From Heterodontus francisci (Eukaryota): 64,000 nt of DNA. The first letter of the stretch is position 1, and each line of letters opens with the position of its first letter. The notes beneath the pieces were generated by a model. It saw only the letters and a list, made by a program, of their open reading frames with translations, ran no database searches and was not told the DNA's origin. Below are positions 21,417 to 64,000 of this stretch, piece after piece. Position numbers and translations under genes: made by a program. The DNA is taken from NCBI RefSeq assembly GCF_036365525.1, contig NC_090399.1, forward strand, positions 42,812,430-42,876,429, given 5' to 3'.

Positions 21417-21463
21417 TCAGGCATTGGCGGAGGAGCTGGATGAGGATTCCCCTTTATCAGAAG
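21417..21463 (-). CDS. MHC class I heavy chain, last coding (cytoplasmic) exon
   Basis: ttaacag| (A)CT TCT GAT AAA GGG GAA TCC... = TSDKGESSSSSSANA*, then G|gtatg. Ser-rich tail typical of class I. Confidence 0.8.
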
Positions 21464-21636
21464 CTGTTAATGGAAGGACAGGCATTAACAAACTGTTCAC
21501 TATGAGAGATAGAGACAGAGTCAGTGAACAAGATACAAAGACAAAGAGAGAGAGAAAAATGGAGAGATGGACAAAGACAAAGACACAGATGCACACACAG
21601 AGAAAGAAAGACAGAGATAGAGCCAGCATGCAAGAT

Positions 21637-21645
<9 letters not shown>

Positions 21646-21692
<47 letters not shown>
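21646..21692. repeat. (AG)n microsatellite within a GA-rich intron
   Basis: About 23 perfect AG units. Confidence 0.95.
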
Positions 21693-21696
<4 letters not shown>

Positions 21697-21829
21697 GGAC
21701 AGAGACACAGAGAGAGTAAGGCAGAGATGGAGGAAGCCATAGAAATGAGCTGTTGTGTGTCAGACACCCAATGAGCAATGATTCACACAGTTACACAAAG
21801 ATCCAGATGATGTTTGATGGTCAGCTTAC

Positions 21830-21862
21830 TCTTTGTAGGATTGTAGCCGCTCGTCCCTGTCA
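21830..21862 (-). CDS. MHC class I heavy chain, cytoplasmic exon 1 (33 nt)
   Basis: tttttcag|TG ACA GGG ACG AGC GGC TAC AAT CCT ACA AAG A|gtaag = VTGTSGYNPTK. Contains the conserved cytoplasmic Tyr, phase 1/1. Confidence 0.85.
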
Positions 21863-22554: not shown

Positions 22555-22665
22555 CTTTCCTCTTATAGACAGCGACAGCCACAATGACGAGAACGATGAT
22601 CAGCCCGAGGATCACAAGTACAATCCCGACAGTAACAGGGATCTGGGAGTCAGACTTTAGTCCTG
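22555..22665 (-). CDS. MHC class I heavy chain, connecting peptide/transmembrane exon
   Basis: ctccag|cag| tandem acceptor (22665 or 22662), (A)GLKSDSQIPVTVGIVLVILGLIIVLVIVAVAVYKRK G|gtagg. In frame with alpha3. Confidence 0.88.
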
Positions 22666-23050
22666 CTGGAGAGCGAGAGAATGAGAGAGAGAATCAGAGA
22701 TATCCCAGGATACAGCGTGTCCTTGTAGTACTATAATATCCCAAGACACACTAGGTCCAGTCGTACTGTAATATCCCGGGATATTAATCTGTTAATTGTG
22801 AATGAATTTTTTAATTATATGCAGTGGAGGGTGTTAATTGGGGACTTACTTAAGCACTTATAAGCAGACACTTACTGAGACTGGTAAAAGTATTTGACGG
22901 AGGGGCTACATGTTTGAAATCCTTTTACTCTGTACAAACTGAGTAAAAATAGGCTCCAGCATCATCCTTCTATAACAAGCTTTCTGGAGGTTACACCAGA
23001 ACCTGCCATACTGTAATATCCCAGGATACACCGGGTCCTGCTGTACTGTA

Positions 23051-31025: not shown

Positions 31026-31289
31026 CATAAATCACCACCATCATCTCCGTCAGCCCGCTGTGCTCCACCCGACAGGAATACTCAGCCTGGTCTTCCGGAT
31101 CAAACTCTATCCATTTCCGGATCTGGTAGGTTCTGTCGTGATTGGGTAAAATCCCAGAGGACAGGATCTCATCGATCATCACTCCATCTCTCCACAGAGT
31201 CACCTCGATGGCCTGAGGGTAAAACCCAGTGACGACACAGGACAGCCGGTTAGAATCACCTGGACGTGTAAAGGACACGACGGGGGCGA
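31026..31289 (-). CDS. MHC class I heavy chain, alpha3 (Ig C1) exon
   Basis: ctctcag|(V)APVVSFTRPGDSNRLSCVVTGFYPQAIEVTLWRDG...ILPNHDRTYQIRKW...YSCRVEHSGL...IY G|gtaag. 264 nt, C1-set motifs. Confidence 0.95.
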
Positions 31290-31399: not shown

Positions 31400-31926
31400 A
31401 CTTCACTCACCGATTCTTGGTCCATTCATCCGCACATCCCCTCATTCACCGACTCTCAGTCCCTCCCTCCCTTCACTCTCCGACTCTCGGTCCCACCCCC
31501 CTCACTCACTCACTGACTCTCAGTCTCTCCTCCTCAATATCTCACCGACTCTCTGTCCCCCCACCTCGCTCACCGACTCTCAGTCCGTCTGTTCCCCCCC
31601 TGCTCACCGACTCAGTCCCTCCCCCTCACTCACTCACTGACTCTCAGTCCCTCCCCCTCACTCACTCACCGACTCTCAGTCCCTCCCCCTCACTCACTCA
31701 CCGACTCTCAGTCCCTCCCCCTCACTCACTCACCGACTCTCAGCCCCTCCGTCCCCCCTCGCTCACCGACTCTCAGTCCCTCCCCCTCACTCACTCACCG
31801 ACTCTCAGCCCCTCCGTCCCCCCCTCGCTCACCGACTCTCAGTCCCTCCCCCTCACTCACTCAACTCTCAGTCCCTCCCCCTCACTCACTCACTGACTCT
31901 CAGTCCCTCCGTCCCCCCTTACTCAC
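31400..31926. repeat. ~32-bp tandem repeat containing the alpha2 exon end and splice donor
   Basis: About 16 units of ctcactcaccgactctcagtccctcccc (sense: ...CTGAGAGTCG|GTGAGT...). Confidence 0.9.
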
Positions 31927-32199
31927 CGACTCTCAGTTCTCGCTGTCCGTACAGCAGGTATTTCCTCAGCCACTCAATACACTCCTCCTCCAAGTAATTC
32001 TTCCAGCCCAGATTGCCAACTCTGTCCTGGTTCCAATTGTGTTGGATGTTCTGCCCCCATGGGACCGGTGTCACCCACACCATGTGATCCTTGTCAAAGC
32101 TGAGGAAGTCTCGTCCGTCCCAGCCGTACTGGTTGAATCCAGTGCTGGTCCCATCGTCCCGCAGGTCACAGCCGGTCATCATCTGGATTGTACGGATCC
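31927..32199 (-). CDS. MHC class I heavy chain, alpha2 exon
   Basis: ttgacag|(G)IRTIQMMTGCDLRDDG...QYGWDGRDFLSFD...W...NYLEEECIEWLRKYLLYGQRELRV G|gtgagt. 273 nt, with C101/C164, W147, Y159, Y171. Confidence 0.96.
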
Positions 32200-32214: not shown

Positions 32215-32460
32215 ACCCAGCCAATCAGACCCAGTACCGCTGGGAGCCCCCGCCCACCACAAAAACAGCCAATCAGGCACAATGACAATAGGCGACCCCA
32301 CCCACTATCCCCCAGCTAACAGCCAATCAGATCCAGTCCCACTGGGAGACCCCGCCCACCACACAGCCAATCAGCCTCTGTCCCACTGGGAGACCCCACC
32401 CACTATTCCCCAGCTAACAGCCAATCAGACCTAGTCCCACTGGGAGACCCCGCCCACTGC
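32215..32460. repeat. ~50-bp repeat with five AGCCAATCAG (CCAAT) boxes alternating with CCCCGCCC/CCCCACCC boxes
   Basis: CCAAT at 32221, 32269, 32323, 32367 and 32421. Confidence 0.8.
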
Positions 32461-32629: not shown

Positions 32630-33105
32630 ATCTGTCTATTTAAAAGGACACCCCTGGACCTTGTTCTGTGTATTTAAAGCAACATTCCCCCACATCCGAA
32701 CCCTGTTCTCTATTTAAAGGAGCACTCCCCCTTTTCTGGACCCTGTTCTGTATATTTACAACAACACTCACCACCACCTTCTCAAGGGCAATTCGGGATG
32801 GACAATAAATGGTGGCCTCGCCAGCAATGCCCACATCTCCCGAGCGAATGAAAAAAAAATACTGCCCTGACCCCGAGCCCTCTTTCTGTGTACTTAAAGG
32901 AACACTCCCCCACCCCCAGACCTGGTTCTGTGTATTTAAAGGAACACCACCCTGCCCCCAGACCTTGTTCTGTGTAATTAAAGGGACATTCCCCCACATC
33001 CAAACCCTGTTCTGTGTCTTTAAAGGAATACCCCACCCGGACTCTGTTCTGTGTACTTAACTGAACACTCCCGCAACCTCAAATCTTGTTCTGTATAATT
33101 TAAAA
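32630..33105. repeat. ~42-bp minisatellite (tgttctgtgtatttaaaggaacactccccc), left segment, with a LINE 3' tail inserted at ~32768-32859
   Basis: Degenerate tandem units. The same unit resumes at 34025-34043 and 38940-39400. Confidence 0.8.
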
Positions 33106-38939: not shown

Positions 38940-39400
38940 CCCTGGACCCCATTCTGTGATTTAATGGAACAGTCTCCCACCCCCCACAACGCTGTTCTGT
39001 GTATTTAAAGCAACACTCCCTCACTCTTGGTGCACTGTGTATTTAAAGGAACACTCCCCCAACACCCCTCCCCCCCCACCCCGTTCTGTGTATTTAAAGG
39101 AACACTCCCTCACTCCGAAACCTTGCTCTGTGTATTTAAAGGAACACTCCCCCAACATCCACCCACCTCCCCCCCACTGGTTCTGTGTATTTAAAGGAAC
39201 AGTTCTTCACTCCTGGACACTGCTCTGTTTATTTAAACGAACACTCCCCCACCCCCGGACCCTGTGCTGTGTCTTTAGAGGAACACTCCCTCACTCCGAG
39301 ACATTGCTCTGTGTATTTAAAGAAACACTCCCCCACCCCCGGACCCTGTGCTGTGTGTTAAAGGACACCCAGAAATTGATCTGTGTATTTAATGAAACGA
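38940..39400. repeat. ~42-bp minisatellite, right segment
   Basis: About 10 units of ctgtgtatttaaaggaacactccc. Confidence 0.85.
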
Positions 39401-39548: not shown

Positions 39549-39809
39549 CCGCTGACTGGTTGGCTCGGGACATGAGGATCGGAATACGGGCCTTGAACTT
39601 CATCTCTCGCTCCTGTGCCAGGAACTTCTTCCGTGCCCAAGCCTCAGGCCCTTCACTCTCCACCATCCACTGCTCCCGAGGAATCAACTCCTTCCGATCG
39701 CTGTCGTACATAACAAACTGGACATCGTCAACATAACCGACACCCACAAACTCCGGGAAACCAGGATTTGGAGTCATGGACGTGAAGAAATACCGGAGAG
39801 AGTGAGAGC
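39549..39809 (-). CDS. MHC class I heavy chain, alpha1 exon
   Basis: tttttcag|(G)[37 protein letters not shown]...PREQWM..EGPEAW...[10 protein letters not shown]|gtgagt. 261 nt, N86 glycosylation site NQS. Confidence 0.96.
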
Positions 39810-39827
39810 CTGAAAAACAGAGAAAAA

Positions 39828-42800
39828 GACATCAGGACATGAACCCCAAACCACCAACCCCACACAGAGAGAGAAATCGGGACACGAACCTCAAACCACC
39901 AACCCCACACAGAGAGAGACATCAGGACATGAACCCCAAAACACCAACCCCACACAGAGAGAGAAATCGGGACACGAACCTCAAACCACCAACCCCACAC
40001 AGAGAGAGACATCAGGACATGAACCCCAAAACACCAACCCCACACAGAGAGAGAAATCGGGACATGAACCCCAAACCACCAACCCCACACAGAGAGAGAA
40101 ATCGGGACATGAACCTCAAACCACCAACCCCACACAGAGAGAGCATTCAGGACATGAACCCCAAAACACCAACCCCACACAGAGAGAGAAATCGGGACAT
40201 GAACCTCAAACCACCAACCCCACAGAGACACATCAGGACATGAACCCCAAAACACAAACCCCTCACAGAGAAACATCAGGACATGAACCCCAAAACACCA
40301 ACCCCACATATCGAGACACATCAGGACATGAACCCCAAAAAACCAACCCCTCACAGAGAAACATCAGGACATGAACCCCAAAATACCAACCCCACACAGA
40401 GAGAGACATCAGGACATGAACCCCAAAACACCAACCCCACACAGAGAAACATCAGGACATGAACCCCAAAACACCAACCCCTCACAGAGAAACATCAGGA
40501 CATCAACCCCAAACAGACAGACATCAGGACATGAACCCACAAACACCAACCCCACACAGAGACATCAGGACATGAACCCCAAAACACCAACCCCACACAG
40601 ACAGACATCAGGACATGAACCCCAAAACACCAACCCCACACAGACAGACATCAGGACATGAACCCCAAAACACCAACCCCAATCAGAGAGACGTCAGGAC
40701 ATGAACCCAGAAACACCAACCCCACACAGAGAGAGACATCAGGACATGAACCCCAAAACACCAACCCCAATCAGAGAGACGTCAGGACATGAACCCAGAA
40801 ACACCAACCCCACTCAGAGAGACACATCAGGACATGAACCCCAAAACACAAACCCCACACAGACAGACATCAGGACATGAACCCCAAAACATCAACCCCA
40901 CACAGAGACATCAGGACATGAACCCCAAAACACAAACCCCACACAGAGACACATCAGGACATGAACCCCAAAACACCAACCCCACACATCGAGACACATC
41001 AGGACATGAACCCCAAAACACCAACCCCACATATCGAGACACATCAAGACATGAACCCCAAAACACCAACCCCACACATCGAGACACATCAGGACATGAA
41101 CCCCAAAACACCAACCCCACACATCGAGACACATCAGGACATGAACCCCAAAACACCAACCCCTCACAGAGAAACATCAGGACATGAACCCCAAAACACC
41201 AACCCCACACATCGAGACACATCAGGACATGAACCCCAAAACACAAACCCCACACATCGAGACACATGAGGACATGAACCCCAAAACACCAACCCCACAC
41301 AGAGACACATCAGGACATGAACCCCAAAACACCAACCCCACACAGAGACACATCAGGACATGAACCCCAAAACACCAACCCCACAAAAAGACATCAGGAC
41401 ATAAACCCCAAAACACCAACCCCACACAGAGAGACATCAGGACATAAACCCCAAAACAACAACCCCACAAAAAGACATCAGGACATAAACCCCAAAACAC
41501 CAACCCCACACAGAGAGACATCAGGACATAAACCCCAAAACACCAACCCCACACAGAGAGACATCAGGACATGAACCCAAAAACACCAGCCCCACACAGA
41601 GAGAGACATCAGGACATGAACCCCAAAGCACCAACCCCTCACAGAGAAACATCAGGACATGAACCCCAAAATACCAACCCCACACAGAGAGAGACATCAG
41701 GACATGAACCCCAAAACACCAACCCCACGCAGAGAGTCATCAGGACATGAACCCCAAAACACCAACCCCACACAGAGAGACATCAGGACATGAACCCCAA
41801 AACACCAACCCCACACAGAGAGACATCAGGACATGAACCCCAAAACACCAACCCCACACAGAGAGACATCAGGACATGAACCCCAAAACACCAAACCCAC
41901 ACAGAGAGACATCAGGACATGAACCCCAAAACACGAACCCCACACAGACAGACGTCAGGACATGAACCCAGAAACACCAACCCCACAGAGACACATCAGG
42001 ACATGAACCTCAAACCACCAACCCCACACAGAGAGAGACATCAGGACATGAACCCCAAAACACCAACCCCACACAGAGAGAGACATCAGGACATGAACAC
42101 CAAAACACCAACCCCAATCAGAGAGACGTCAGGACATGAACCCAGAAACACCAACCCCACTCAGAGAGACACATCAGGACATGAACCCCAAAACACAAAC
42201 CCCACACAGAAAGACATCAGGACATGAACCCCAAAACATCAACCCCACACAGAGACATCAGGACATGAACCCCAAAACACAAACCCCACACAGAGACACA
42301 TCAGGACATGAACCCCAAAACACCAACCCCACACATCGAGACACATCAGGACATGAACCCCAAAACACCAACCCCACATATCGAGACACATCAAGACATG
42401 AACCCCAAAACACCAACCCCACACATCGAGACACATCAGGACATGAACCCCAAAACACCAACCCCACACATCGAGACACATCAGGACATGAACCCCAAAA
42501 CACCAACCCCTCACAGAGAAACATCAGGACAAGAACCCCAAAACACCAACCCCACACATCGAGACACATGAGGACATGAACCCCAAAACACCAACCCCAC
42601 ACAGAGAGACACATCAAGACATGAACCCCAAAACACCAACCCCACACAACGAGACACATCAGGACATGAACCCCAAAACACAAACCCCACACAGAGACAC
42701 ATGAGGACATGAACCCCAAAACACCAACCCCACACAGAGAGACATCAGGACATGAACCCCAAAACACCAACCCCACACAGAGAGACACATCAAGACATGA

Positions 42801-45800
42801 ACCCCAAAACACCAACCCCACACAGAGACACATCAAGACATGAACCCCAAAACACCAACCCCACACATCGAGACACATCAAGACATGAACCCCAAAACAC
42901 CAACCCCACACATCGAGACACATCAAGACATGAACCCCAAAACACCAACCCCACACATCGAGACACATCAAGACATGAACCCCAAAACACCAACCCCACA
43001 CAGAGAGACATCAGGACATGAACCCCAAAACACCAACCCCACACATCGAGACACATCAAGACATGAACCCCAAAACACCAACCCCACACAGAGAGACACA
43101 TCAGGACATGATCCCCAAAACACCAACCCCACACATTGAGACACATCAGGACATGAACCCCAAAACACCAACCCCACACAGAGAGACATCAGGACATGAA
43201 CCCCAAAACACCAACCCCACACATCGAGACACATCAAGACATGAACCCCAAAACACCAACCCCACACAGAGAGACACATCAAGACATGAACCCCAAAACA
43301 CCAACCCCACACATCGAGACACATGAGGACATGAACCCCAAAACACCAACCCCACACAGAGACACATCAGGACATGAACCCCAAAACACCAACCCCACAC
43401 AGAGAGACATCAGGATATGAACCCAAAACACCAACCCCACACAGAGACACATCAGGACATGAACCCCAAAACACCAACCCCACAAAAAGACATCAGGACA
43501 TAAACCCCAAAACACCAACCCCACACAGAGAGACATCAGGACATGAACCCCAAAACACCAACCCCACACAGAGAGACATCAGGACATGAACCCAAAAACA
43601 CCAGCCCCACACAGAGAGAGACATCAGGACATGAACCCCAAAACACCAACCCCTCACAGAGAAACATCAGGACATGAACCCCAAAACACCAACCCCACAC
43701 AGAGAGAGACATCAGGACATGAACCCCAAAACACCAACCCCACACAGAGAAACATCAGGACATGAACCCCAAAACACCAACCCCTCACAGAGAAACATCA
43801 GGACATCAACCCCAAACAGACAGACATCAGGACATGAACCCACAAACACCAACCCCACACAGAGACATCAGGACATGAACCCCAAAACACCAACCCCACA
43901 CAGACAGACATCAGGACATGAACCCCAAAACACCAACCCCACACAGACAGACATCAGGACATGAACCCCAAAACACCAACCCCAATCAGAGAGACGTCAG
44001 GACATGAACCCAGAAACACCAACCCCACACAGAGAGAGACATCAGGACATGAACCCCAAAACACCAACCCCAATCAGAGAGACGTCAGGACATGAACCCA
44101 GAAACACCAACCCCACTCAGAGAGACACATCAGGACATGAACCCCAAAACACAAACCCCACACAGACAGACATCAGGACATGAACCCCAAAACATCAACC
44201 CCACACAGAGACATCAGGACATGAACCCCAAAACACAAACCCCACACAGAGACACATCAGGACATGAACCCCAAAACACCAACCCCACACATCGAGACAC
44301 ATCAGGACATGAACCCCAAAAGACCAACCCCACATATCGAGACACATCAAGACATGAACCCCAAAACACCAACCCCACACATCGAGACACATCAGGACAT
44401 GAACCCCAAAACACCAACCCCACACATCGAGACACATCAGGACATGAACCCCAAAACACCAACCCCTCACAGAGAAACATCAGGACATGAACCCCAAAAC
44501 ACCAACCCCACACATCGAGACACATCAGGACATGAACCCCAAAACACAAACCCCACACATCGAGACACATGAGGACATGAACCCCAAAACACCAACCCCA
44601 CACAGAGACACATCAGGACATGAACCCCAAAACACCAACCCCACACAGAGACACATCAGGACATGAACCCCAAAACACCAACCCCACAAAAAGACATCAG
44701 GACATAAACCCCAAAACACCAACCCCACACAGAGAGACATCAGGACATGAACCCCAAAACACCAACCCCACACAGAGAGACATCAGGACATGAACCCAAA
44801 AACACCAGCCCCACACAGAGAGAGACATCAGGACATGAACCCCAAAGCACCAACCCCTCACAGAGAAACATCAGGACATGAACCCCAAAATACCAACCCC
44901 ACACAGAGAGAGACATCAGGACATGAACCCCAAAACACCAACCCCACGCAGAGAGTCATCAGGACATGAACCCCAAAACACCAACCCCACACAGAGAGAC
45001 ATCAGGACATGAACCCCAAAACACCAACCCCACACAGAGAGACATCAGGACATGAACCCCAAAACACCAACCCCACACAGAGAGACATCAGGACATGAAC
45101 CCCAAAACACCAAACCCACACAGAGAGACATCAGGACATGAACCCCAAAACACGAACCCCACACAGACAGACGTCAGGACATGAACCCAGAAACACCAAC
45201 CCCACAGAGACACATCAGGACATGAACCTCAAACCACCAACCCCACACAGAGAGAGACATCAGGACATGAACCCCAAAACACCAACCCCACACAGAGAGA
45301 GACATCAGGACATGAACACCAAAACACCAACCCCAATCAGAGAGACGTCAGGACATGAACCCAGAAACACCAACCCCACTCAGAGAGACACATCAGGACA
45401 TGAACCCCAAAACACAAACCCCACACAGACAGACATCAGGACATGAACCCCAAAACATCAACCCCACACAGAGACATCAGGACATGAACCCCAAAACACA
45501 AACCCCACACAGAGACACATCAGGACATGAACCCAAAACACCAACCCCACACATCGAGACACATCAGGACATGAACCCCAAAAGACCAACCCCACATATC
45601 GAGACACATCAAGACATGAACCCCAAAACACCAACCCCACACATCGAGACACATCAGGACATGAACCCCAAAACACCAACCCCACACATCGAGACACATC
45701 AGGACATGAACCCCAAAACACCAACCCCTCACAGAGAAACATCAGGACAAGAACCCCAAAACACCAACCCCACACATCGAGACACATGAGGACATGAACC

Positions 45801-48800
45801 CCAAAACACCAACCCCACACAGAGAGACACATCAAGACATGAACCCCAAAACACAAACCCCACACATCGAGACACATGAGGACATGAACCCCAAAACACC
45901 AACCCCACACATCGAGACACATCAGGACATGAACCCCAAAACACAAACCCCACACAGAGACACATGAGGACATGAACCCCAAAACACCAACCCCACACAG
46001 AGAGACATCAGGACATGAACCCCAAAACACCAACCCCACACAGAGAGACACATCAAGACATGAACCCCAAAACACCAACCCCACACAGAGACACATCAAG
46101 ACATGAACCCCAAAACACCAACCCCACACATCGAGACACATCAAGACATGAACCCCAAAACACCAACCCCACACATCGAGACACATCAAGACATGAACCC
46201 CAAAACACCAACCCCACACATCGAGACACATCAAGCCATGAACCCCAAAACACCAACCCCACACAGAGAGACATCAGGACATGAACCCCAAAACACCAAC
46301 CCCACACATCGAGACACATCAAGACATGAACCCCAAAACACCAACCCCACACAGAGAGACACATCAGGACATGATCCCCAAAACACCAACCCCACACATT
46401 GAGACACATCAGGACATGAACCCCAAAACACCAACCCCACACAGAGAGACATCAGGACATGAACCCCAAAACACCAACCCCACACATCGAGACACATCAA
46501 GACATGAACCCCAAAACACCAACCCCACACAGAGAGACACATCAAGACATGAACCCCAAAACACCAACCCCACACATCGAGACACATGAGGACATGAACC
46601 CCAAAACACCAACCCCACACAGAGACACATGAGGACATGAACCCCATAACACCAACCCCACACAGAGAGACATCAGGACATGAACCCAGAAACACCAACC
46701 CCACAGAGACACATCAGGACATGAACCTCAAACCACCAACCCCACACAGAGAGAGACATCAGGACATGAACCCCAAAACACCAACCCCACACAGAGAGAG
46801 ACATCAGGACATGAACACCAAAACACCAACCCCAATCAGAGAGACGTCAGGACATGAACCCAGAAACACCAACCCCACTCAGAGAGACACATCAGGACAT
46901 GAACCCCAAAACACAAACCCCACACAGACAGACATCAGGACATGAACCCCAAAACATCAACCCCACACAGAGACATCAGGACATGAACCCCAAAACACAA
47001 ACCCCACACAGAGACACATCAGGACATGAACCCCAAAACACCAACCCCACACATCGAGACACATCAGGACATGAACCCCAAAACACCAACCCCACATATC
47101 GAGACACATCAAGACATGAACCCCAAAACACCAACCCCACACATCGAGACACATCAGGACATGAACCCCAAAACACCAACCCCACACATCGAGACACATC
47201 AGGACATGAACCCCAAAACACCAACCCCTCACAGAGAAACATCAGGACATGAACCCCAAAACACCAACCCCACACATCGAGACACATCAGGACATGAACC
47301 CCAAAACACCAACCCCACACATCGAGACACATGAGGACATGAACCCCAAAACACCAACCCCACACAGAGAGACACATCAAGACATGAACCCCAAAACACA
47401 AACCCCACACATCGAGACACATGAGGACATGAACCCCAAAACACCAACCCCACACATCGAGACACATCAGGACATGAACCCCAAAACACAAACCCCACAC
47501 AGAGACACATGAGGACATGAACCCCATAACACCAACCCCACACAGAGAGACATCAGGACATGAACCCCAAAACACCAACCCCACACAGAGAGACACATCA
47601 AGACATGAACCCCAAAACACCAACCCCACACAGAGACACATCAAGACATGAACCCCAAAACACCAACCCCACACATCGAGACACATCAAGACATGAACCC
47701 CAAAACACCAACCCCACACATCGAGACACATCAAGACATGAACCCCAAAACACCAACCCCACACATCGAGACACATCAAGACATGAACCCCAAAACACCA
47801 ACCCCACACAGAGAGACATCAGGACATGAACCCCAAAACACCAACCCCACACATCGAGACACATCAAGACATGAACCCCAAAACACCAACCCCACACAGA
47901 GAGACACATCAGGACATGATCCCCAAAACACCAACCCCACACAGAGACACATCAGGACATGAACCCCAAAACACCAACCCCATACAGAGAGACATCAGGA
48001 CATGAACCCCAAAACACCAACCCCACACATCGAGACACATCAAGACATGAACCCCAAAACACCAACCCCACACAGAGAGACACATCAAGACATGAACCCC
48101 AAAACACCAACCCCACACAGAGAGACAGATCAGGACATGAACCCCAAAACACCAACCCCACACAGAGAGACACATCCGGACATGAACCCCAAAACACCAA
48201 CCCCACACAGAGAGACATCAGGACATGAACCCCAAAACACCAACCCCACACAGAGACACATCAGGACATGAACCGCAAAACACCAACCCCACAAAAAGAC
48301 ATCAGGACATGAACCCCAAAACACCAACCCCACACAGAGAGACATCAGGACATGAACCCCAAAACACCAACCCCACACAGAGAGACATCAGGACATGAAC
48401 CCAAAAACACCAGCCCCACACAGAGAGAGACATCAGGACATGAACCCCAAAGCACCAACCCCTCACAGAGAAACATCAGGACATGAACCCCAAAATACCA
48501 ACCCCACACAGAGAGAAACATCAGGACATGAACCCCAAAACACCAACCCCACACATCGACACACATGAGGACATGAACCCCAAAACACCAACCCCACACA
48601 GAGACACATCAGGACATGAACCCCAAAACACCAACCCCACACAGAGAGACATCAGGATATGAACCCAAAACACCAACCCCACACAGAGACACATCAGGAC
48701 ATGAACCCCAAAACACCAACCCCACAAAAAGACATCAGGACATAAACCCCAAAACACCAACCCCACACAGAGAGACATCAGGACATGAACCCCAAAACAC

Positions 48801-51800
48801 CAACCCCACACAGAGAGACATCAGGACATGAACCCAAAAACACCAGCCCCACACAGAGAGAGACATCAGGACATGAACCCCAAAGCACCAACCCCTCACA
48901 GAGAAACATCAGGACATGAATCCAAAATACCAACCCCACCCAGAGAGAGACATCAGGACATGAACCCCAAAACACCAACCCCACGCAGAGAGTCATCAGG
49001 ACATGAACCCCAAAACACCAACCCCACACAGAGAGACATCAGGACATGAACCCCAAAACACCAACCCCACACAGAGAGACATCAGGACATGAACCCCAAA
49101 ACACCAACCCCACACAGAGAGACACATGAGGACATGAACCCCAAAACACCAACCCCACACATCGAGACACATCAGGACATGAACCCCAAAACACAAACCC
49201 CACACAGAGACACATGAGGACATGAACCCCAAAACACCAACCCCACACATCGAGAGACATCAGGACATGAACCCCAAAACACCAACCCCACACAGAGAGA
49301 CACATCAAGACATGAACCCCAAAACACCAACCCCACACATTGAGACACATCAGGACATGAACCCCAAAACACCAACCCCACACAGAGAGACATCAGGACA
49401 TGAACCCCAAAACACCAACCCCACACATCGAGACACATCAAGACATGAACCCCAAAACACCAACCCCACACAGAGAGACACATCAAGACATGAACCCCAA
49501 AACACCAACCCCACACATCGAGACACATGAGGACATGAACCCCAAAACACCAACCCCACACAGAGACACATCAGGACATGAACCCCAAAACACCAACCCC
49601 ACACAGAGAGACATCAGGATATGAACCCAAAACAACAACCCCACACAGAGACACATCAGGACATGAACCCCAAAACACCAACCCCACAAAAAGACATCAG
49701 GACATAAACCCCAAAACACCAACCCCACACAGAGAGACATCAGGACATGAACCCCAAAACACCAACCCCACACAGAGAGACATCAGGACATGAACCCAAA
49801 AACACCAGCCCCACACAGAGAGAGACATCAGGACATGAACCCCAAAGCACCAACCCCTCACAGAGAAACATCAGGACATGAACCCCAAAATACCAACCCC
49901 ACACAGAGAGAGACATCAGGACATGAACCCCAAAACACCAACCCCACACATCGAGACACATGAGGACATGAACGCCAAAACACCAACCCCACACAGAGAC
50001 ACATCAGGACATGAACCCCAAAACACCAACCCCACAAAAAGACATCAGGACATAAACCCCAAAACACCAACCCCACACAGAGAGACATCAGGACATGAAC
50101 CCCAAAACACCAACCCCACACAGAGAGACATCAGGACATGAACCCAAAAACACCAGCCCCACACAGAGAGAGACATCAGGACATGAACCCCAAAGCACCA
50201 ACCCCTCACAGAGAAACATCAGGACATGAATCCAAAATACCAACCCCACACAGAGAGAGACATCAGGACATGAACCCCAAAACACCAACCCCACGCAGAG
50301 AGTCATCAGGACATGAACCCCAAAACACCAACCCCACACAGAGAGACATCAGGACATGAACCCCAAAACACCAACCCCACACAGAGAGACATCAGGACAT
50401 GAACCCCAAAACACCAACCCCACACAGAGAGACATCAGGACATGAACCCCAAAACACCAACCCCACACAGAGAGACATCAGGACATGAACCCCAAAACAC
50501 GAACCCCACACAGACAGACATCAGGACATGAACCCCAAAACACCAACCCCAATCAGAGAGACGTCAGGACATGAACCCAGAAACACCAACCCCACAGAGA
50601 CACATCAGGACATGAACCTCAAACCACCAACCCCACACAGAGAGAGACATCAGGACATGAACCCCAAAACACCAACCCCACACAGAGAGAGACATCAGGA
50701 CATGAACACCAAAACACCAACCCCAATCAGAGAGACGTCAGGACATGAACCCAGAAACACCAACCCCACTCAGAGAGACACATCAGGACATGAACCCCAA
50801 AACACAAACCCCACACAGACAGACATCAGGACATGAACCCCAAAACATCAACCCCACACAGAGACATCAGGACATGAACCCCAAAACATCAACCCCACAC
50901 AGAGACATCAGGACATGAACCCCAAAACACAAACCCCACACAGAGACACATCAGGACATGAACCCCAAAACACCAACCCCACACATCGAGACACATCAGG
51001 ACATGAACCCCAAAACACCAACCCCACATATCGAGACACATCAAGACATGAACCCCAAAACACCAACCCCACACATCGAGACACATCAGGACATGAACCC
51101 CAAAACACCAACCCCACACATCGAGACACATCAGGACATGAACCCCAAAACACCAACCCCTCACAGAGAAACATCAGGACATGAACCCCAAAACACCAAC
51201 CCCACACATCGAGACACATCAGGACATGAACCCCAAAACACCAACCCCACACATCGAGACACATGAGGACATGAACCCCAAAACACCAACCCCACACAGA
51301 GAGACACATCAAGACATGAACCCCAAAACACAAACCCCACACATCGAGACACATGAGGACATGAACCCCAAAACACCAACCCCACACATCGAGACACATC
51401 AGGACATGAACCCCAAAACACAAACCCCACACAGAGACACATGAGGACATGAACCCCATAACACCAACCCCACACAGAGAGACATCAGGACATGAACCCC
51501 AAAACACCAACCCCACACAGAGAGACACATCAAGACATGAACCCCAAAACACCAACCCCACACAGAGACACATCAAGACATGAACCCCAAAACACCAACC
51601 CCACACATCGAGACACATCAAGACATGAACCCCAAAACACCAACCCCACACATCGAGACACATCAAGACATGAACCCCAAAACACCAACCCCACACATCG
51701 AGACACATCAAGACATGAACCCCAAAACACCAACCCCACACAGAGAGACATCAGGACATGAACCCCAAAACACCAACCCCACACATCGAGACACATCAAG

Positions 51801-54800
51801 ACATGAACCCCAAAACACCAACCCCACACAGAGAGACACATCAGGACATGATCCCCAAAACACCAACCCCACACATTGAGACACATCAGGACATGAACCC
51901 CAAAACACCAACCCCATACAGAGAGACATCAGGACATGAACCCCAAAACACCAACCCCACACATCGAGACACATCAAGACATGAACCCCAAAACACCAAC
52001 CCCACACAGAGAGACACATCAAGACATGAACCCCAAAACACCAACCCCACACAGAGAGACAGATCAGGACATGAACCCCAAAACACCAACCCCACACAGA
52101 GAGACACATCCGGACATGAACCCCAAAACACCAACCCCACACAGAGAGACATCAGGACATGAACCCCAAAACACCAACCCCACACAGAGACACATCAGGA
52201 CATGAACCGCAAAACACCAACCCCACACATTGAGACATCATCAGGACATGAACCCCAAAACACCAACCCCACATAGAGAAACATCAGGACATGAACCCCA
52301 AAACACCAACCCCACACATCGAGACACATCAAGACATGAACCCCAAAACACCAACCCCACACAGAGAGACACATCAGGACATGATCCCCAAAACACCAAC
52401 CCCACACATTGAGACACATCAGGACATGAACCCCAAAACACCAACCCCACACAGAGAGACATCAGGACATGAACCCCAAAACACCAACCCCACACATCGA
52501 GACACATCAAGACATGAACCCCAAAACACCAACCCCACACAGAGAGACACATCAAGACATGAACCCCAAAACACCAACCCCACACATCGAGACACATGAG
52601 GACATGAACCCCAAAACACCAACCCCACACAGAGACACATCAGGACATGAACCCCAAAACACCAACCCCACACAGAGAGACATCAGGATATGAACCCAAA
52701 ACACCAACCCCACACAGAGACACATCAGGACATGAACCCCAAAACACCAACCCCACAAAAAGACATCAGGACATAAACCCCAAAACACCAACCCCACACA
52801 GAGAGACATCAGGACATGAACCCCAAAACACCAACCCCACACAGAGAGACATCAGGACATGAACCCAAAAACACCAGCCCCACACAGAGAGAGACATCAG
52901 GACATGAACCCCAAAGCACCAACCCCTCACAGAGAAACATCAGGACATGAACCCCAAAATACCAACCCCACACAGAGAGAAACATCAGGACATGAACCCC
53001 AAAACACCAACCCCACACATCGAGACACATGAGGACATGAACCCCAAAACACCAACCCCACACAGACACACATCAGGACATGAACCCCAAAACACCAACC
53101 CCACACAGAGAGACATCAGGATATGAACCCAAAACACCAACCCCACACAGAGACACATCAGGACATGAACCCCAAAACACCAACCCCACAAAGAGACATC
53201 AGGACATAAACCCCAAAACACCAACCCCACACAGAGAGACATCAGGACATGAACCCCAAAACACCAACACCACACAGAGAGACATCAGGACATGAACCCA
53301 AAAACACCAGCCCCACCCAGAGAGAGACATCAGGACATGAACCCCAAAGCACCAACCCCTCACAGAGAAACATCAGGACATGAATCCAAAATACCAACCC
53401 CACACAGAGAGAGACATCAGGACATGAACCCCAAAACACCAACCCCACGCAGAGAGTCATCAGGACATGAACCCCAAAACACCAAACCCACACAGAGAGA
53501 CATCAGGACATGAACCCCAAAACACCAACCCCACACAGAGAGACATCAGGACATGAACCCCAAAACACCAACCCCACACAGAGAGACACATGAGGACATG
53601 AACCCCAAAACACCAACCCCACACATCGAGACACATCAGGACATGAACCCCAAAACACAAACCCCACACAGAGACACATGAGGACATGAACCCCAAAACA
53701 CCAACCCCACACATCGAGAGACATCAGGACATGAACCCCAAAACACCAACCCCACACAGAGAGACACATCAAGACATGAACCCCAAAACACCAAACCCAC
53801 ACATCGAGACACATCAAGACATGAACCCCAAAACACCAACCCCACACAGAGAGACATCAGGACATGAACCCCAAAACACCAACCCCACACATCGAGACAC
53901 ATCAAGACATGAACCCCAAAACACCAACCCCACACAGAGAGACACATCAGGACATGATCCCCAAAACACCAACCCCACACATTGAGACACATCAGGACAT
54001 GAACCCCAAAACACCAACCCCACACAGAGAGACATCAGGACATGAACCCCAAAACACCAACCCCACACATCGAGACACATCAAGACATGAACCCCAAAAC
54101 ACCAACCCCACACAGAGAGACACATCAAGACATGAACCCCAAAACACCAACCCCACACATCGAGACACATGAGGACATGAACCCCAAAACACCAACCCCA
54201 CACAGAGACACATCAGGACATGAACCCCAAAACACCAACCCCACACAGAGAGACATCAGGATATGAACCCAAAACAACAACCCCACACAGAGACACATCA
54301 GGACATGAACCCCAAAACACCAACCCCACAAAAAGACATCAGGACATAAACCCCAAAACACCAACCCCACACAGAGAGACATCAGGACATGAACCCCAAA
54401 ACACCAACCCCACACAGAGAGACATCAGGACATGAACCCAAAAACACCAGCCCCACACAGAGAGAGACATCAGGACATGAACCCCAAAGCACCAACCCCT
54501 CACAGAGAAACATCAGGACATGAACCCCAAAATACCAACCCCACACAGAGAGAGACATCAGGACATGAACCCCAAAACACCAACCCCACACATCGAGACA
54601 CATGAGGACATGAACGCCAAAACACCAACCCCACACAGAGACACATCAGGACATGAACCCCAAAACACCAACCCCACACAGAGAGACATCAGGATATGAA
54701 CCCAAAACACCAACCCCACACAGAGACACATCAGGACATGAACCCCAAAACACCAACCCCACAAAAAGACATCAGGACATAAACCCCAAAACACCAACCT

Positions 54801-57800
54801 CACACATAGAGACATCAGGACATGAACCCCAAAACACCAACCCCACACAGAGAGACATCAGGACATGAACCCAAAAACACCAGCCCCACACAGAGAGAGA
54901 CATCAGGACATGAACCCCAAAGCACCAACCCCTCACAGAGAAACATCAGGACATGAATCCAAAATACCAACCCCACACAGAGAGAGACATCAGGACATGA
55001 ACCCCAAAACACCAACCCCACGCAGAGAGTCATCAGGACATGAACCCCAAAACACCAACCCCACACAGAGAAACATCAGGACATGAACCCCAAAACACCA
55101 ACCCCACACAGAGAGACATCAGGACATGAACCCCAAAACACCAACCCCACACAGAGAGACATCAGGACATGAACCCCAAAACACCAACCCCACACAGAGA
55201 GACATCAGGACATGAACCCCAAAACACGAACCCCACACAGACAGACATCAGGACATGAACCCCAAAACACCAACCCCAATCAGAGAGACGTCAGGACATG
55301 AACCCAGAAACACCAACCCCACAGAGACACATCAGGACATGAACCTCAAACCACCAACCCCACACAGAGAGAGACATCAGGACATGAACCCCAAAACACC
55401 AACCCCACAGAGAGAGAGACATCAGGACATGAACCCCAAAACACCAACCCCAATCAGAGAGACGTCAGGACATGAACCCAGAAACACCAACCCCACTCAG
55501 AGAGACACATCAGGACATGAACCCCAAAACACAAACCCCACACAGACAGACATCAGGACATGAACCCCAAAACATCAACCCCACACAGAGACATCAGGAC
55601 ATGAACCCCAAAACACAAACCCCACACAGAGACACATCAGGACATGAACCCCAAAACACCAACCCCACACATCGAGACACATCAGGACATGAACCCCAAA
55701 ACACCAACCCCACATATCGAGACACATCAAGACATGAACCCCAAAACACCAACCCCACACATCGAGACACATCAGGACATGAACCCCAAAACACCAACCC
55801 CACATATCGAGACACATCAAGACATGAACCCCAAAATACCAACCCCACACATCGAGACACATCAGGACATGAACCCCAAAACACCAACCCCACACATCGA
55901 GACACATCAGGACATGAACCCCAAAACACCAACCCCTCACAGAGAAACATCAGGACATGAACCCCAAAACACCAACCCCACACATCGAGACACATCAGGA
56001 CATGAACCCCAAAACACCAACCCCACACATCGAGACACATGAGGACATGAACCCCAAAACACCAACCCCACACAGAGAGACACATCAAGACATGAACCCC
56101 AAAACACAAACCCCACACATCGAGACACATGAGGACATGAACCCCAAAACACCAACCCCACACATCGAGACACACCAGGACATGAACCCCAAAACACCAA
56201 CCCCACACAGAGACACATGAGGACATGAACCCCAAAACACCAACCCCACACAGAGAGACATCAGGACATGAACCCCAAAACACCAACCCCACACAGAGAG
56301 ACACATCAAGACATGAACCCCAAAACACCAACCCCACACAGAGACACATCAAGACATGAACCCCAAAACACCAACCCCACACATCGAGACACATCAAGAC
56401 ATGAACCCCAAAACACCAACCCCACACATCGAGACACATCAAGACATGAACCCCAAAACACCAACCCCACACATCGAGACACATCAAGACATGAACCCCA
56501 AAACACCAACCCCACACAGAGAGACATCAGGACATGAACCCCAAAACACCAACCCCACACATCGAGACACATCAAGACATGAACCCCAAAACACCAACCC
56601 CACACAGAGAGACACATCAGGACATGATCCCCAAAACACCAACCCCACACATTGAGACACATCAGGACATGAACCCCAAAACACCAACCCCACACAGAGA
56701 GACATCAGGACATGAACCCCAAAACACCAACCCCACACATCGAGACACATCAAGACATGAACCCCAAAACACCAACCCCACACAGAGAGACACATCAAGA
56801 CATGAACCCCAAAACACCAACCCCACACAGAGAGACACATCAGGACATGAACCCCAAAACACCAACCCCACACAGAGAGACACATCCGGACATGAACCCC
56901 AAAACACCAACCCCACACAGAGAGACATCAGGACATGAACCCCAAAACACCAACCCCACACAGAGACACATCAGGACATGAACCGCAAAACACCAACCCC
57001 ACACATTGAGACACATCAGGACATGAACCCCAAAACACCAACCCCACATAGAGAAACATCAGGACATGAACCCCAAAACACCAACCCCACACATCGAGAC
57101 ACATCAGGACATGATCCCCAAAACACCAACCCCACAGAGAGAAAGACATCAGGACATGAACCCCAAAACGCCAACCCCACACAGAGACACACATCAGGAT
57201 ATGAACCCCAAAACACCAACACAAGAGAGACATCAGGACATGAACCCCAAAACACCAACCCCACACAGAGAAACATCAGGACATGAACCCCAAAACACCA
57301 ACCCCACAAAAAGACATCAGGACATAAACCCCAAAACACCAACCCCACACAGAGAGACATCAGGACATGAACCCCAAAACACCAACCCCACACAGAGAGA
57401 CATCAGGACATGAACCCCAAAACACCAACCCCACACAGAGAGACATCAGGACATGAACCCCAAAACACCAACCCCACACAGAGAGACATCAGGACATGAA
57501 CCCCAAAACGCCAACCCCACACATCGAGACACATCAAGACATGAACCCCAAAACACCAACCCCACTCATCGAGACACATCAAGACATGAACCCCAAAACA
57601 CCAACCCCACACATCGAGACACATCAAGACATGAACCCCAAAACACCAACCCCACACATCGAGACACATCAAGACATGAACCCCAAAACACCAACACCAC
57701 ACATCGAGACACATCAAGACATGAACCCCAAAACACCAACCCCACACATCGAGACACATCAAGACATGAACCCCAAAACACCAACACCACACATCGAGAC

Positions 57801-60800
57801 ACATCAAGACATGAACCCCAAAACGCCAACCCCACACATCGAGACACATCAAGACATGAACCCCAAAACACTAACCCCACACAGAGAGAGACATCAAGAC
57901 ATGAACCCCAAAACACTAACCCCACACAGAGAGAGACATCAGGACATGAACCCCAAAACACCAACCCCACACAGAGAAACATCAGGACATGAACCCCAAA
58001 ACACCAAGCCCACACAGAGAGACATCAGGACATGAACCCCAAAACACCAAGCCCACACAGAGAGACATCAGGACATGAACACCAAAACACCAGCCCCACA
58101 CAGAGAGAGACATCAGGACATGAACCCCAAAACACCAACCCCACAGAGAGAGAGACATCAGGACATGAACCCCAAAACACCAACCCCACATAGAGAAACA
58201 TCAGGACATGAACCCCAAAACACCAACCCCACACAGAGACACATCAGGACATGAACCCCAAAACACCAACCCCACAGAGAGAAAGACATCAGGACATGAA
58301 CCCCAAAACGCCAACCCCACACAGAGACACACATCAGGATAAGAACCCCAAAACACCAACACAAGAGAGACATCAGGACATGAACCCCAAAACACCAACC
58401 CCACACAGAGAGACATCAGGACATGAACCCCAAAACACCAACACAAGAGAGACATCAGGACATGAACCCCAAAACACCAACCCCACACAGAGAGACATCA
58501 GGATATGAACCCAAAACACCAACACCACACAGAGACACATCAGGACATGAACCCCAAAACACCAACCCCACAAAAAGACATCAGGACATAAACCCCAAAA
58601 CACCAACCCCACACAGAGAGACATCAGGACATGAACCCAAAAACACCAGCCCCACACAGAGAGAGACATCAGGACATGAACCCCAAAGCACCAACCCGTC
58701 ACAGAGAAACATCAGGACATGAACCCCAAAATACCAACCCCACACAGAGAGAGACATCAGGAAATGAACCCCAAAACACCAACCCCACGCAGAGAGTCAT
58801 CAGGACATGAACCCCAAAACACCAACCCCACACAGAGAGACATCAGGACATGAACCCCAAAACACCAACCCCACACAGAGAGACATCAGGACATGAACCC
58901 AAAAACACCAGCCCCACACAGAGAGAGACATCAGGACATGAACCCCAAAGCACCAACCCTTCACAGAGAAACATCAGGACATGAACCCCAAAATACCAAC
59001 CCCACACAGAGAGAGACATCAGGAAATGAACCCCAAAACACCAACCCCAGGCAGAGAGTCATCAGGACATGAACCCCAAAACACCAACCCCACACAGAGA
59101 GACATCAGGACATGAACCCCAAAACACCAACCCCACACAGAGAGACATCAGGACATGAACCCCAAAACACCAACCCCACACAGAGAGACATCAGGACATG
59201 AACCCCAAAACACCAACCCCACACAGAGAGAGATCAGGACATGAACCCCAAAACACCAACCCCACTCAGAGAGACACATCAGGACATGAACCCCAAAACA
59301 CAAACCCCACACAGACAGACATCAGGACATGAACCCCAAAACATCAACCCCACACAGAGACATCAGGACATGAACCCCAAAACACAAACCCCACACAGAG
59401 ACACATCAGGACATGAACCCCAAAACACCAACCCCACACATCGAGACACATCAGGACATGAACCCCAAAACACCAACCCCACATATCGAGACACATCAAG
59501 ACATGAACCCCAAAACACCAACCCCACACATCGAGACACATCAGGACATGAACCCCAAAACACCAACCCCACATATCGAGACACATCAAGACATGAACCC
59601 CAAAACACCAACCCCACACATCGAGACACATCAGGACATGAACCCCAAAACACCAACCCCACACATCGAGACACATCAGGACATGAACCCCAAAACACCA
59701 ACCCCTCACAGAGAAACATCAGGACATGAACCCCAAAACACCAACCCCACACATCGAGACACATCAGGACATGAACCCCAAAACACCAACCCCACACATC
59801 GAGACACATGAGGACATGAACCCCAAAACACCAACCCCACACAGAGAGACACATCAAGACATGAACCCCAAAACACAAACCCCACACATCGAGACACATG
59901 AGGACATGAACCCCAAAACACCAACCCCACACATCGAGACACATCAGGACATGAACCCCAAAACACAAACCCCACACAGAGACACATGAGGACATGAACC
60001 CCAAAACACCAACCCCACACAGAGAGACATCAGGACATGAACCCCAAAACACCAACCCCACACAGAGAGACACATCAAGACATGAACCCCAAAACACCAA
60101 CCCCACACAGAGACACATCAAGACATGAACCCCAAAACACCAACCCCACACATCGAGACACATCAGGACATGATCCCCAAAACACCAACCCCACACATTG
60201 AGACACATCAGGACATGAACCCCAAAACACCAACCCCACACAGAGAGACATCAGGACATGAACCCCAAAACACCAACCCCACACATCGAGACACATCAAG
60301 ACATGAACCCCAAAACACCAACCCCACACAGAGAGACATCAGGACATGAACCCCAAAACACCAACCCCACACAGAGACACATCAGGACATGAACCGCAAA
60401 ACACCAACCCCACACATTGAGACACATCAGGACATGAACCCCAAAACACCAACCCCACATAGAGAAACATCAGGACATGAACCCCAAAACACCAACCCCA
60501 CACATCGAGACACATCAGGACATGATCCCCAAAACACCAACCCCACAGAGAGAAAGACATCAGGACATGAACCCCAAAACGCCAACCCCACACAGAGACA
60601 CACATCAGGATATGAACCCCAAAACACCAACACAAGAGAGACATCAGGACATGAACCCCAAAACACCAACCCCACACAGAGAGACATCAGGACATGAACC
60701 CCAAAACACCAACACAAGAGAGACATCAGGACATGAACCCCAAAACACCAACCCCACACAGAGAAACATCAGGACATGAACCCCAAAACACCAACCCCAC

Positions 60801-63800
60801 AAAAAGACATCAGGACATAAACCCCAAAACACCAACCCCACACAGAGAGACATCAGGACATGAACCCCAAAACACCAACCCCACACAGAGAGACATCAGG
60901 ACATGAACCCCAAAACACCAACCCCACACATCGAGACACATCAAGACATGAACCCCAAAACACCAACCCCACACATCGAGACACATCAAGACATGAACCC
61001 CAAAACACCAACCCCACACATCGAGACACATCAAGACATGAACCCCAAAACACCAACCCCACACATCGAGACACATCAAGACATGAACCCCAAAACACCA
61101 ACACCACACATCGAGACACATCAAGACATGAACCCCAAAACACCAACCCCACACATCGAGACACATCAAGACATGAACCCCAAAACACCAACACCACACA
61201 TCGAGACACATCAAGACATGAACCCCAAAACGCCAACCCCACACATCGAGACACATCAAGACATGAACCCCAAAACACTAACCCCACACAGAGAGAGACA
61301 TCAAGACATGAACCCCAAAACACTAACCCCACACAGAGAAACATCAGGACATGAACCCCAAAACACCAAGCCCACACAGAGAGACATCAGGACATGAACC
61401 CCAAAACACCAAGCCCACACAGAGAGACATCAGGACATGAACACCAAAACACCAGCCCCACACAGAGAGAGACATCAGGACATGAACCCCAAAACACCAA
61501 CCCCACAGAGAGAGAGACATCAGGACATGAACCCCAAAACACCAACCCCACATAGAGAAACATCAGGACATGAACCCCAAAACACCAACCCCACACAGAG
61601 ACACATCAGGACATGAACCCCAAAACACCAACCCCACAGAGAGAAAGACATCAGGACATGAACCCCAAAACGCCAACCCCACACAGAGACACACATCAGG
61701 ATAAGAACCCCAAAACACCAACACAAGAGAGACATCAGGACATGAACCCCAAAACACCAACCCCACACAGAGAGACATCAGGACATGAACCCCAAAACAC
61801 CAAAACAAGAGAGACATCAGGACATGAACCCCAAAACACCAACCCCACACAGAGAGACATCAGGATATGAACCCAAAACACCAACACCACACAGAGACAC
61901 ATCAGGACATGAACCCCAAAACACCAACCCCACAAAAAGACATCAGGACATAAACCCCAAAACACCAACCCCACACAGAGAGACATCAGGACATGAACCC
62001 AAAAACACCAGCCCCACACAGAGAGAGACATCAGGACATGAACCCCAAAGCACCAACCCGTCACAGAGAAACATCAGGACATGAACCCCAAAATACCAAC
62101 CCCACACAGAGAGAGACATCAGGAAATGAACCCCAAAACACCAACCCCACGCAGAGAGTCATCAGGACATGAACCCCAAAACACCAACCCCACACAGAGA
62201 GACATCAGGACATGAACCCAAAAACACCAGCCCCACACAGAGAGAGACATCAGGACATGAACCCCAAAGCACCAACCCTTCACAGAGAAACATCAGGACA
62301 TGAACCCCAAAATACCAACCCCACACAGAGAGAGACATCAGGAAATGAACCCCAAAACACCAACCCCACGCAGAGAGTCATCAGGACATGAACCCCAAAA
62401 CACCAACCCCACACAGAGAGACATCAGGACATGAACCCCAAAACACCAACCCCACACAGAGAGACATCAGGACATGAAGCCCAAAACACCAACCCCACAC
62501 AGAGAGACATCAGGACATGAACCCCAAAACACCAACCCCACACAGAGAGACATCAGGACATGAACCCCAAAACACCAACCCCACACAGAGAGACATCAGG
62601 ACATGAACCCCAAAACACCAACCCCACGCAGAGAGTCATCAGGACATGAACCCCAAAACACCAACCCCACGCAGAGAGTCATCAGGACATGAACCCCAAA
62701 GCACCAACCCCTCACAGAGAAACATCAGGACATGAACCCCAAAATACCAACCCCACACAGAGAGAGACATCAGGACATGAACCCCAAAACACCAACACCA
62801 CGCAGAGAGACATCAGGACATGAACCCCAAAACACCAACCCCACACAGAGAGACATCAGGACATGAACCCCAAAACACCAACCCCACACAAAGAGACATC
62901 AGGACATGAACTCCAAAACACCAACCCCACACAGAGAGACATCAGGATATGAACCCCAAAACACAAACCCCACACAGAGAGACATCAGGACATGAACTCC
63001 AAAACACCAACCCCACACAGAGAGACATCTGGACATGAACCCCAAAACACCAACCCCACACATCGAGACACATCAAGACATGAACCCCAAAACACCAACC
63101 CCACACAGAGAGAGACATCAGGACATGAACCCCAAAACACCAACCCCACACAGAGAAACATCAGGACATGAAACCCAAAACACCAACCCCACTTAGAGCG
63201 AGACATCAGGACATGAACCCCAAAACACCAACCCCACACAGAGAGACACATCAGGACATGAACCCCAAAACACCAACCCCACTTAGAGCGAGACATCAGG
63301 ACATGAACCCCAAAACACCAACCCCACACAGAGAGACACATCAGGACATGAACCCCAAAACACCAACCCCACAGAGAGAAAGACATCAGGACATGAACCC
63401 CAAAACACCAACCCCACACAGAGAAACATCAGGACATGAACCCCAAAACACCAACCCCACACAGAGAAACAACAGGACATGAAACCCAAAACACCAACCC
63501 CACTTAGAGCGAGACATCAGGACATGAACCCCAAAACACCAACCCCACACAGAGAGAAACATCAGGACATGAACCCCAAAACACCAACCCCACACAGAGA
63601 GACACATCAGGACATGAACCCCAAAACACCAACCCCACAGAGAGAGACATCAGGACATGAACCCCAAAACACTAACCCCACACAGAGAGAAACATCAAGA
63701 CATGAACCCCAAAACACCAACCCCACATATCGAGACACATCAGGACATGAACCCCAAAACACCAACCCCACACAGAGACACATCAGGACATGAACCCCAA

Positions 63801-64000
63801 AACACCAACACAAGAGAGACATCAGGACATGAACCCCAAAACACCAACCCCACTTAGAGCGAGACATCAGGACATGAACCCCAAAACACCAACCCCACTG
63901 AGAGCGAGACATCAGGACATGAACCCCAAAACACTAACCCCACACAGAGAGAAACATCAGGACATGAACCCCAAAACACCAACCCCACACAGAGAGACAC
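39828..64000. repeat. Giant 43/45-bp tandem satellite (>24 kb, roughly 550 units) in MHC intron 1
   Basis: Units gacatcaggacatgaaccccaaaacaccaaccccacacagaga (43) and gacacatcaggacatgaaccccaaaacaccaaccccacacatcga (45), plus variants. No non-repeat interruption seen to the window end. Confidence 0.99.

Follow-up and report, generated by a model that had tools for sequence, protein, structure and literature searches.

The first intron of an intact nonclassical class I gene of the major histocompatibility complex (MHC) of Heterodontus francisci consists to 87% (58 kb of 67 kb) of a satellite array that stops 17 nt short of the acceptor of the alpha1 exon. The gene lies on the minus strand of the stretch of 64,000 nucleotides that was analysed here (NC_090399.1:42,812,430-42,876,429; the window), and the array was measured with the adjoining stretches beyond the window. 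In our view it is quite likely that this satellite, which probably has no function, arose by tandem duplication of the sequence in front of the acceptor and was then swollen by unequal exchange or slippage. It belongs with the boundary-anchored mirage minisatellites, as a variant that is confined to the intron and is very large.

Results

The array is 58,245 bp long, contains a 43-bp unit about 1,359 times and runs to NC_090399.1:42,910,500. Its part in the window (39,827-63,999) was resolved by Tandem Repeats Finder into 553 copies with 90% matches. The initial annotation, made from the window, had proposed a satellite of more than 24 kb; this satellite is real, and its actual length is larger. 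The beginning of the array about 17 nt from the acceptor and the terminal unit as quoted there were confirmed: the terminal unit holds CTGAT, and the putative branch point A is located at 39,832, i. e. at position -23. The statement that every unit repeats CTGAT holds for only 416 of the approximately 553 units in the window, but most of the others carry the variants TTGAT (101) or CTCAT (33), which still fit the yUnAy motif. A second yUnAy motif, TTCAT, is present in nearly every unit of this part. The unit is wholly intronic and contains no exon letters. In the complete array, 238 distinct unit types were found, and the longest exact internal repeat spans about 40 parsed units, a figure that is to be read with the fusion of some units by the parser (869 parsed as compared to about 1,359 real units). 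A 33-nt motif of the unit has 561 exact matches in the genome, 560 of them inside three class I introns. For a 27-nt variant motif there were 2,445 matches, of which 1,307 were placed and 1,138 unlocated, and the family may thus occur elsewhere. The sense strand of the array (window 39,827-64,000) is G/T-rich with two G4 runs and about nine UG per unit; judged from this composition, the units are a possible substrate for G-quadruplex formation or for UG-binding proteins.

The exon beyond the array defines the satellite as part of intron 1 rather than as the edge of a truncated gene. We searched 66 kb beyond the array for an ATG followed by a hydrophobic stretch and a phase-1 donor, and the leader exon MIGLIVLVLLCGGVSA (NC_090399.1:42,919,102-42,919,054, outside the window) with the donor G/GTGAGTA ranked first among all candidates scanned. 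A CCAAT-like box is present about 160 nt upstream of this exon. The resulting intron 1 has a length of 66,815 bp. Truncation by a subtelomeric satellite is ruled out: the array comes to an end, the leader is found on its far side, and the locus sits 42.9 Mb along a sequence of 74.5 Mb.

The leader, alpha1 to alpha3, transmembrane and cytoplasmic exons are all open and in phase, as in an MHC class I heavy chain. All seven exons match the database protein P0036, and they differ by one residue from P0002 (AAC60348.1); the matches are named from the horn shark. AAC60348.1, a named protein record which we take to be derived from a cDNA, joins the leader to alpha1. Contigs from three of four sequencing runs (X1, X4 and X8, from three studies; presumed to be RNA by guess) connect alpha1 to the leader's final 13-14 letters; the other end of alpha1 is connected to alpha2 by contigs of all four runs, again only guessed to be RNA. 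These leader-alpha1 joins, in P0002 as in the contigs, come from alleles or relatives, in which the array may have another length. The tandem CAGCAG acceptor of the transmembrane exon accounts for two database isoforms that are one Ala apart.

The best match among solved structures is the nurse shark class I protein 6lup_A (E 2e-27). The paralogue P0038, the Triakis protein P0039 and 6LUP retain all eight conserved residues that serve as classical anchors of the peptide termini (Y7, Y59, R84, T143, K146, W147, Y159 and Y171). The gene in the window has lost three of the eight, Y59, T143 and K146 being replaced, and is thus not of the classical class Ia (UAA) type. Its protein falls into a cross-shark clade of 11 rows (support 100/99), apart from the Triakis and nurse shark sequences. 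The tree contained no reference row labelled UBA; based on this clade and the published description, the gene probably belongs to the UBA lineage. UBA is a multicopy nonclassical lineage of sharks, near to but distinct from the classical UAA (PMC12562908, PMC10751288), and its cluster is flanked by c4 and rxrb (PMC10751288). The host gene is likewise multicopy and close to but apart from UAA. In the available portions of these two papers intron structure is not mentioned, and the word intron occurs 0 times in that of PMC10751288. A search for class II beta family members gave no match, but the control gave none either.

The paralogues of the gene reveal how the array may have come about. We found 25 alpha1-like places in the genome and located the matching leaders. 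In the 22 genes for which both ends could be placed, intron 1 is never short (6.1-66.8 kb in 22/22), contrary to the expectation that intron 1 of class I genes is usually small. A unit of the 43-bp type directly precedes the acceptor in 21 of the 23 genes with a placed acceptor: 15 genes carry it as arrays of 0.8-58 kb that end 9-17 nt before the acceptor, and six have between half a unit and two units of it. In some of the low-copy genes, remnants of the unit have been pushed upstream by insertions. Since the unit is the pre-acceptor sequence itself and is present at half to two copies in these genes, the proposal that the array grew from the 3' end of the intron is supported; as judged from the sequences, growth from intron 1's own pre-acceptor end is likely. 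In the closest paralogues the introns are colinear (87-92% identity) but their arrays do not exceed 1.2 kb, and by parsimony the expansion is therefore later than these duplications. A distant paralogue has a 53.9-kb array of a variant unit, and none of the 238 unit types of the window array occurs in it (0/238), which indicates a second, independent expansion. Finally, a near-identical copy of the gene 391 kb away contains an array of 51.4 kb, with unique flanks that are 99.2-100% identical. The 58.2-kb and the 51.4-kb arrays have the order of variants in common and differ by many block indels. The segment at 42.46-42.56 Mb of NC_090399.1, at the 391-kb offset, includes the neighbour of the host gene as well; either a duplication or an uncollapsed haplotype or allele could account for it.

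The promoter/leader region was also found elsewhere: a stretch of 281 nt at NC_090399.1:32,792,115-32,792,395 is 100% identical to that of the host gene. The paralogue to which it belongs, 10 Mb away, is about 90% identical in the intron and 87% in alpha1. Local gene conversion of the promoter/leader stretch across 10 Mb is possible on the basis of this pattern.

Tandem arrays are also found at other exon edges of the gene. The 5' end of intron 1 carries a 63-bp array that starts exactly at the donor GT (NC_090399.1:42,919,053 downward) and is common to most paralogues. It consists of 13 and 16 units with a LINE-like insertion in between, the later units mostly read TCA/GTGAGT, and the first 4.9 kb of the intron contain 26 copies of GTGAGT. 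The repeats in front of alpha2 (Table 1) are a small version of the arrangement in intron 1. The 32-bp repeat at the end of alpha2 has 11 copies of AGTCG/GTGA, including the real donor, and is a true boundary-spanning array. A 137-bp array forms the end of intron 1 in two paralogues (66.35 and 66.72 Mb). Besides the real acceptor, these arrays hold 14 and 127 near-exact acceptor copies; the one with 127 copies spans 18.7 kb. Within the 137-bp unit lie the branch motif, the tract, CAG and the exon's first letters, together with a piece that resembles the PEYWERQTQI region of alpha1. The paralogue with 14 copies looks classical, has retained all eight classical residues and groups nearest to the Triakis class I alleles. 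Two independent runs, X1 and X2, contain the 137-bp repeat in the form of a looping contig.

Other class I genes have arrays of at least 17-23 kb in intron 2 or intron 3, and a further class I intron holds at least 32 kb of a 32-bp unit TTTACAG/G with 934 YAG. Moreover, an exon at 65.88-65.92 Mb, which is PSMB8-like by its motifs, has a 37-bp array (at least 18 kb) on one side and a 51-bp array (at least 21 kb) on the other; in one of the two, CAG is present in nearly every unit. In a comparison of 22 proteasome-gene loci, from which six hidden Markov model matches (unplaced-contig or retrocopy-like) were excluded, none of the 21 exon matches on other contigs had an abutting multi-copy array, and two had arrays 0.4-0.7 kb away. 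Simple tandem repeats are commoner on the shorter chromosomes of sharks, according to a paper that, in the portion available, does not mention the MHC (PMC10620051).

Two further features of the window are side observations. Broken frames within the intron between alpha3 and the transmembrane exon (25,036-28,248, plus strand, antisense to the gene) look retroelement-like; by their motifs, they resemble gag, protease, RT and RNase H. At 1-850 on the minus strand there are fragments of a frame that, by eye, resembles a seven-transmembrane receptor.

Table 1. Features of the host gene and its repeats in the window (positions count from the first letter of the window).
Feature	Position	Strand	Remark
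43-45-bp satellite	39827..64000	-	3' 24 kb of the 58,245-bp array; internal higher-order blocks
Intron 1 3' end: putative branch CTGAT, pyrimidine tract, acceptor CAG 39,812-39,810	39810..39835	-	sequence
alpha1 exon	39549..39809	-	phase 1 at both ends
42-bp minisatellite in intron 2, close to its 5' end	38977..39365		related units at 32,671-33,104
44-54-bp repeats with CTGATTGGCTG	32218..32458	-	end about 18 nt before the alpha2 acceptor
alpha2 exon	31927..32199	-	
32-bp repeat	31441..31937	-	across alpha2 exon end and donor, and intron 3 start
alpha3 exon	31026..31289	-	
Transmembrane exon	22555..22665	-	tandem CAGCAG acceptor (22,662-22,668)
Two cytoplasmic exons	21417..21862	-	21,862-21,830; 21,463-21,417 (ends in the stop)

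Discussion

The structure, the sizes, the family distribution and the turnover of the arrays described above are observations; from these we infer the seeding, the exchange or slippage, the retention of the branch point and the mode of exon recognition. The seed would have been a short tandem duplication of about 43 bases just upstream of the last 17 nt of the acceptor, and the length would then have changed by unequal exchange or slippage. This account goes with three of the observations: 21 of the 23 paralogues have the unit in front of the acceptor, at anything from half a unit to 58 kb; the two near-identical copies differ by block indels; and unrelated arrays lie at other exon edges of the region. 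The last unit presumably holds the working branch point, so that selection would pin this end whereas the rest drifts in length. In exon definition, an exon is recognised as a unit through the splice sites at both of its ends. The donor 261 nt downstream would take part in the choice of the alpha1 acceptor, the motifs further upstream would stay silent, and splicing would stay correct for this reason and not because upstream AGs are missing. The lack of AG may simply have been inherited from the A-poor pre-acceptor sequence that served as the source.

We regard a more far-reaching interpretation as unlikely. It takes the MHC region for a hotspot that amplifies exon-edge sequences (at least six unrelated families in class I and PSMB8-like genes), the arrays for heritable, length-variable controls of expression or substrates of recombination, and the spliceosome for a machine that ignores up to 127 near-perfect decoy acceptors immediately in front of a real one.

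The initial annotation had offered a different reason for the tolerance of the array: it would provide hundreds of branch points but almost no acceptors. In the rival model based on this, the array could become large only for that reason, with AG-creating variants being removed by selection. The consensus of the unit is indeed free of AG on the sense strand and contains 2 A in 43 nt, and the largest intron 1 arrays measured end to end (51-58 kb) belong to this AG-poor family. Yet the array as a whole is not nearly AG-free: 59 AG were counted in the window part and 210 in the complete array, 92 of them as YAG. Among 100,000 shuffles of the unit, 38% lacked AG and 59% lacked YAG, and the deficit is thus explained by the composition of the unit. 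With an observed/expected ratio of 0.17, AG behaves like AC (0.19), TA (0.19), CG (0.15), GC (0.10) and AA (0.27): the deficit is what any dinucleotide absent from the unit shows. The depletion calculated with shuffles of the whole array (0.17) was rejected as evidence since it is meaningless to count 1,359 copies as independent. AG-creating substitutions in the window array are no rarer than matched ones (P=0.50), and when each array was tested with its own core, one of seven arrays gave P=0.03 (uncorrected) and the others 0.34-1.0. The unit variants cannot be counted as independent events, and the tests are therefore weak either way. Counts of CAG limited to the tract offered too few sites to decide. 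Moreover, five paralogues have a YAG 54-78 nt from the end of the array, and AG-rich arrays of 18 to more than 32 kb, including those with full copies of the acceptor, exist in class I introns. The decoy acceptors of the 137-bp arrays each run into a stop in the exon frame in those units that were translated, and the paralogues that carry them are a better test case for splicing than the window array. Taken together, it is rather improbable that the lack of AG permits such arrays to exist; it is probably incidental, and selection against AG may act weakly.

Several observations weigh against our preferred account, in which the array drifts and exon definition protects splicing. The 53.9-kb paralogue has fewer AG-making changes (P=0.03 in the stratified test, from an independent array; P=0.003 in a cruder test that applied the core of the window array to all arrays and is biased by the difference in consensus). 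There is no YAG within 18 kb of the acceptor in the window array, and the corresponding stretches measure 11 kb and 7 kb in the near-identical copy and in the 53.9-kb paralogue, respectively. As a sign of selection the zone in the window array was rejected: AAC, CAC, CCA, CGC, GCC and TAA are likewise missing from that quarter. That the acceptor-rich paralogues are spliced correctly is taken from the database gene model P0038 and from open exons, and the look-up of contigs in the runs gave no junction for the gene with the 137-bp array. Finally, the junction contigs of X4 and X8 differ from alpha1 by at least five letters and represent alleles, paralogues or related species.

There is, in our estimation, little chance that the array has been co-opted, either by delaying or dampening expression through its length or by serving as a substrate for recombination, through which promoter/leader and alpha1 would be reshuffled between paralogues. 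Compared with its closest paralogues the gene has a 5- to 10-fold longer intron, expansion past 50 kb took place twice independently, large introns aid the reshuffling of alpha1 and alpha2 in class I genes of trout (PMC6523485), and the 281-nt promoter/leader stretch is 100% identical over 10 Mb as compared to 90% for the intron and 87% for alpha1. On the other hand, the lengths differ about 1,000-fold among paralogues, and unrelated arrays swell other introns, in the PSMB8-like gene and in a broken class I gene, as would be expected from a regional mutational bias. An assembly artefact in array length or in the second gene copy is very improbable, for although the nearly identical flanks of the copies could reflect uncollapsed haplotypes, there is no N in 164 kb, 238 distinct unit types are present, no exact internal repeat is longer than about 40 parsed units, the order of variants is common to both copies, which nevertheless differ by block indels, and the related 137-bp array loops in independent runs.

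The array has relatives among known systems. In amphioxus, mirage minisatellites in Adh3 and the globin genes BflGb6 and BflGb9 are boundary-anchored copies at the 5' or 3' ends of introns with units of 10-160 bp; they span the exon-intron boundary (with 2-6 units in the globin cases), are unstable in length and undergo concerted evolution with diverged edge units, and normal splicing was reported to be unaffected (PMC3087553). The shark array is likewise tied to a boundary between exon and intron within its host gene, unstable in length (58.2 as compared to 51.4 kb) and homogenised in a gene-specific manner (0/238 types shared). In contrast to the mirages, its unit stops 17 nt before the AG and includes no exon sequence, and about 1,359 units extend over 58 kb. 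The 137-bp, 63-bp and 32-bp arrays are closer to true mirages, and both the 137-bp array of the paralogues and the 32-bp array at the start of intron 3 span the boundary. In human genes, variable numbers of tandem repeats (VNTRs) of 5-25 units occur at donor sites (F7 IVS7 with a 37-bp unit, 6-16, CBS IVS13, lamin B2 and PDGF), where the splice signals are reiterated in the intron and the authentic site is mostly used (PMC1557585). The 63-bp array of intron 1 and the 32-bp array of intron 3 resemble these, whereas the satellite lies on the acceptor side, copies only branch motif and tract, and has 50-250 times more units. The Drosophila Y-loop genes kl-3 and kl-5 have megabase satellite introns of simple repeats that are transcribed in spermatocytes with dedicated RNA-binding proteins (PMC6508621). 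They share with the shark gene an intron that is mostly satellite DNA and needs to be transcribed, but the shark intron measures 66.8 kb and not megabases, its 43-bp unit resembles the intron's own end, and the host is an immune gene. Repeats near branch points can alter splicing in humans (PMC10078293). Our literature search found no description of satellites in shark class I introns, which does not establish their absence from print.

Thus, the kind of repeat is known, and its scale exceeds that of the compared cases by two to three orders of magnitude; the array does not demonstrate a new mechanism. Our analysis indicates that a vertebrate immune gene can carry more than 1,000 branch-like motifs in front of a single acceptor. 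As a hypothesis, the length of the array may tune the expression of class I genes or their splicing. The series of paralogues, from half a unit to 58 kb and with 14 and 127 decoys, is suited to test the choice of acceptors and the cost of intron length. Finally, the arrays may explain the large size of shark MHC regions and the difficulty of assembling them from short reads.

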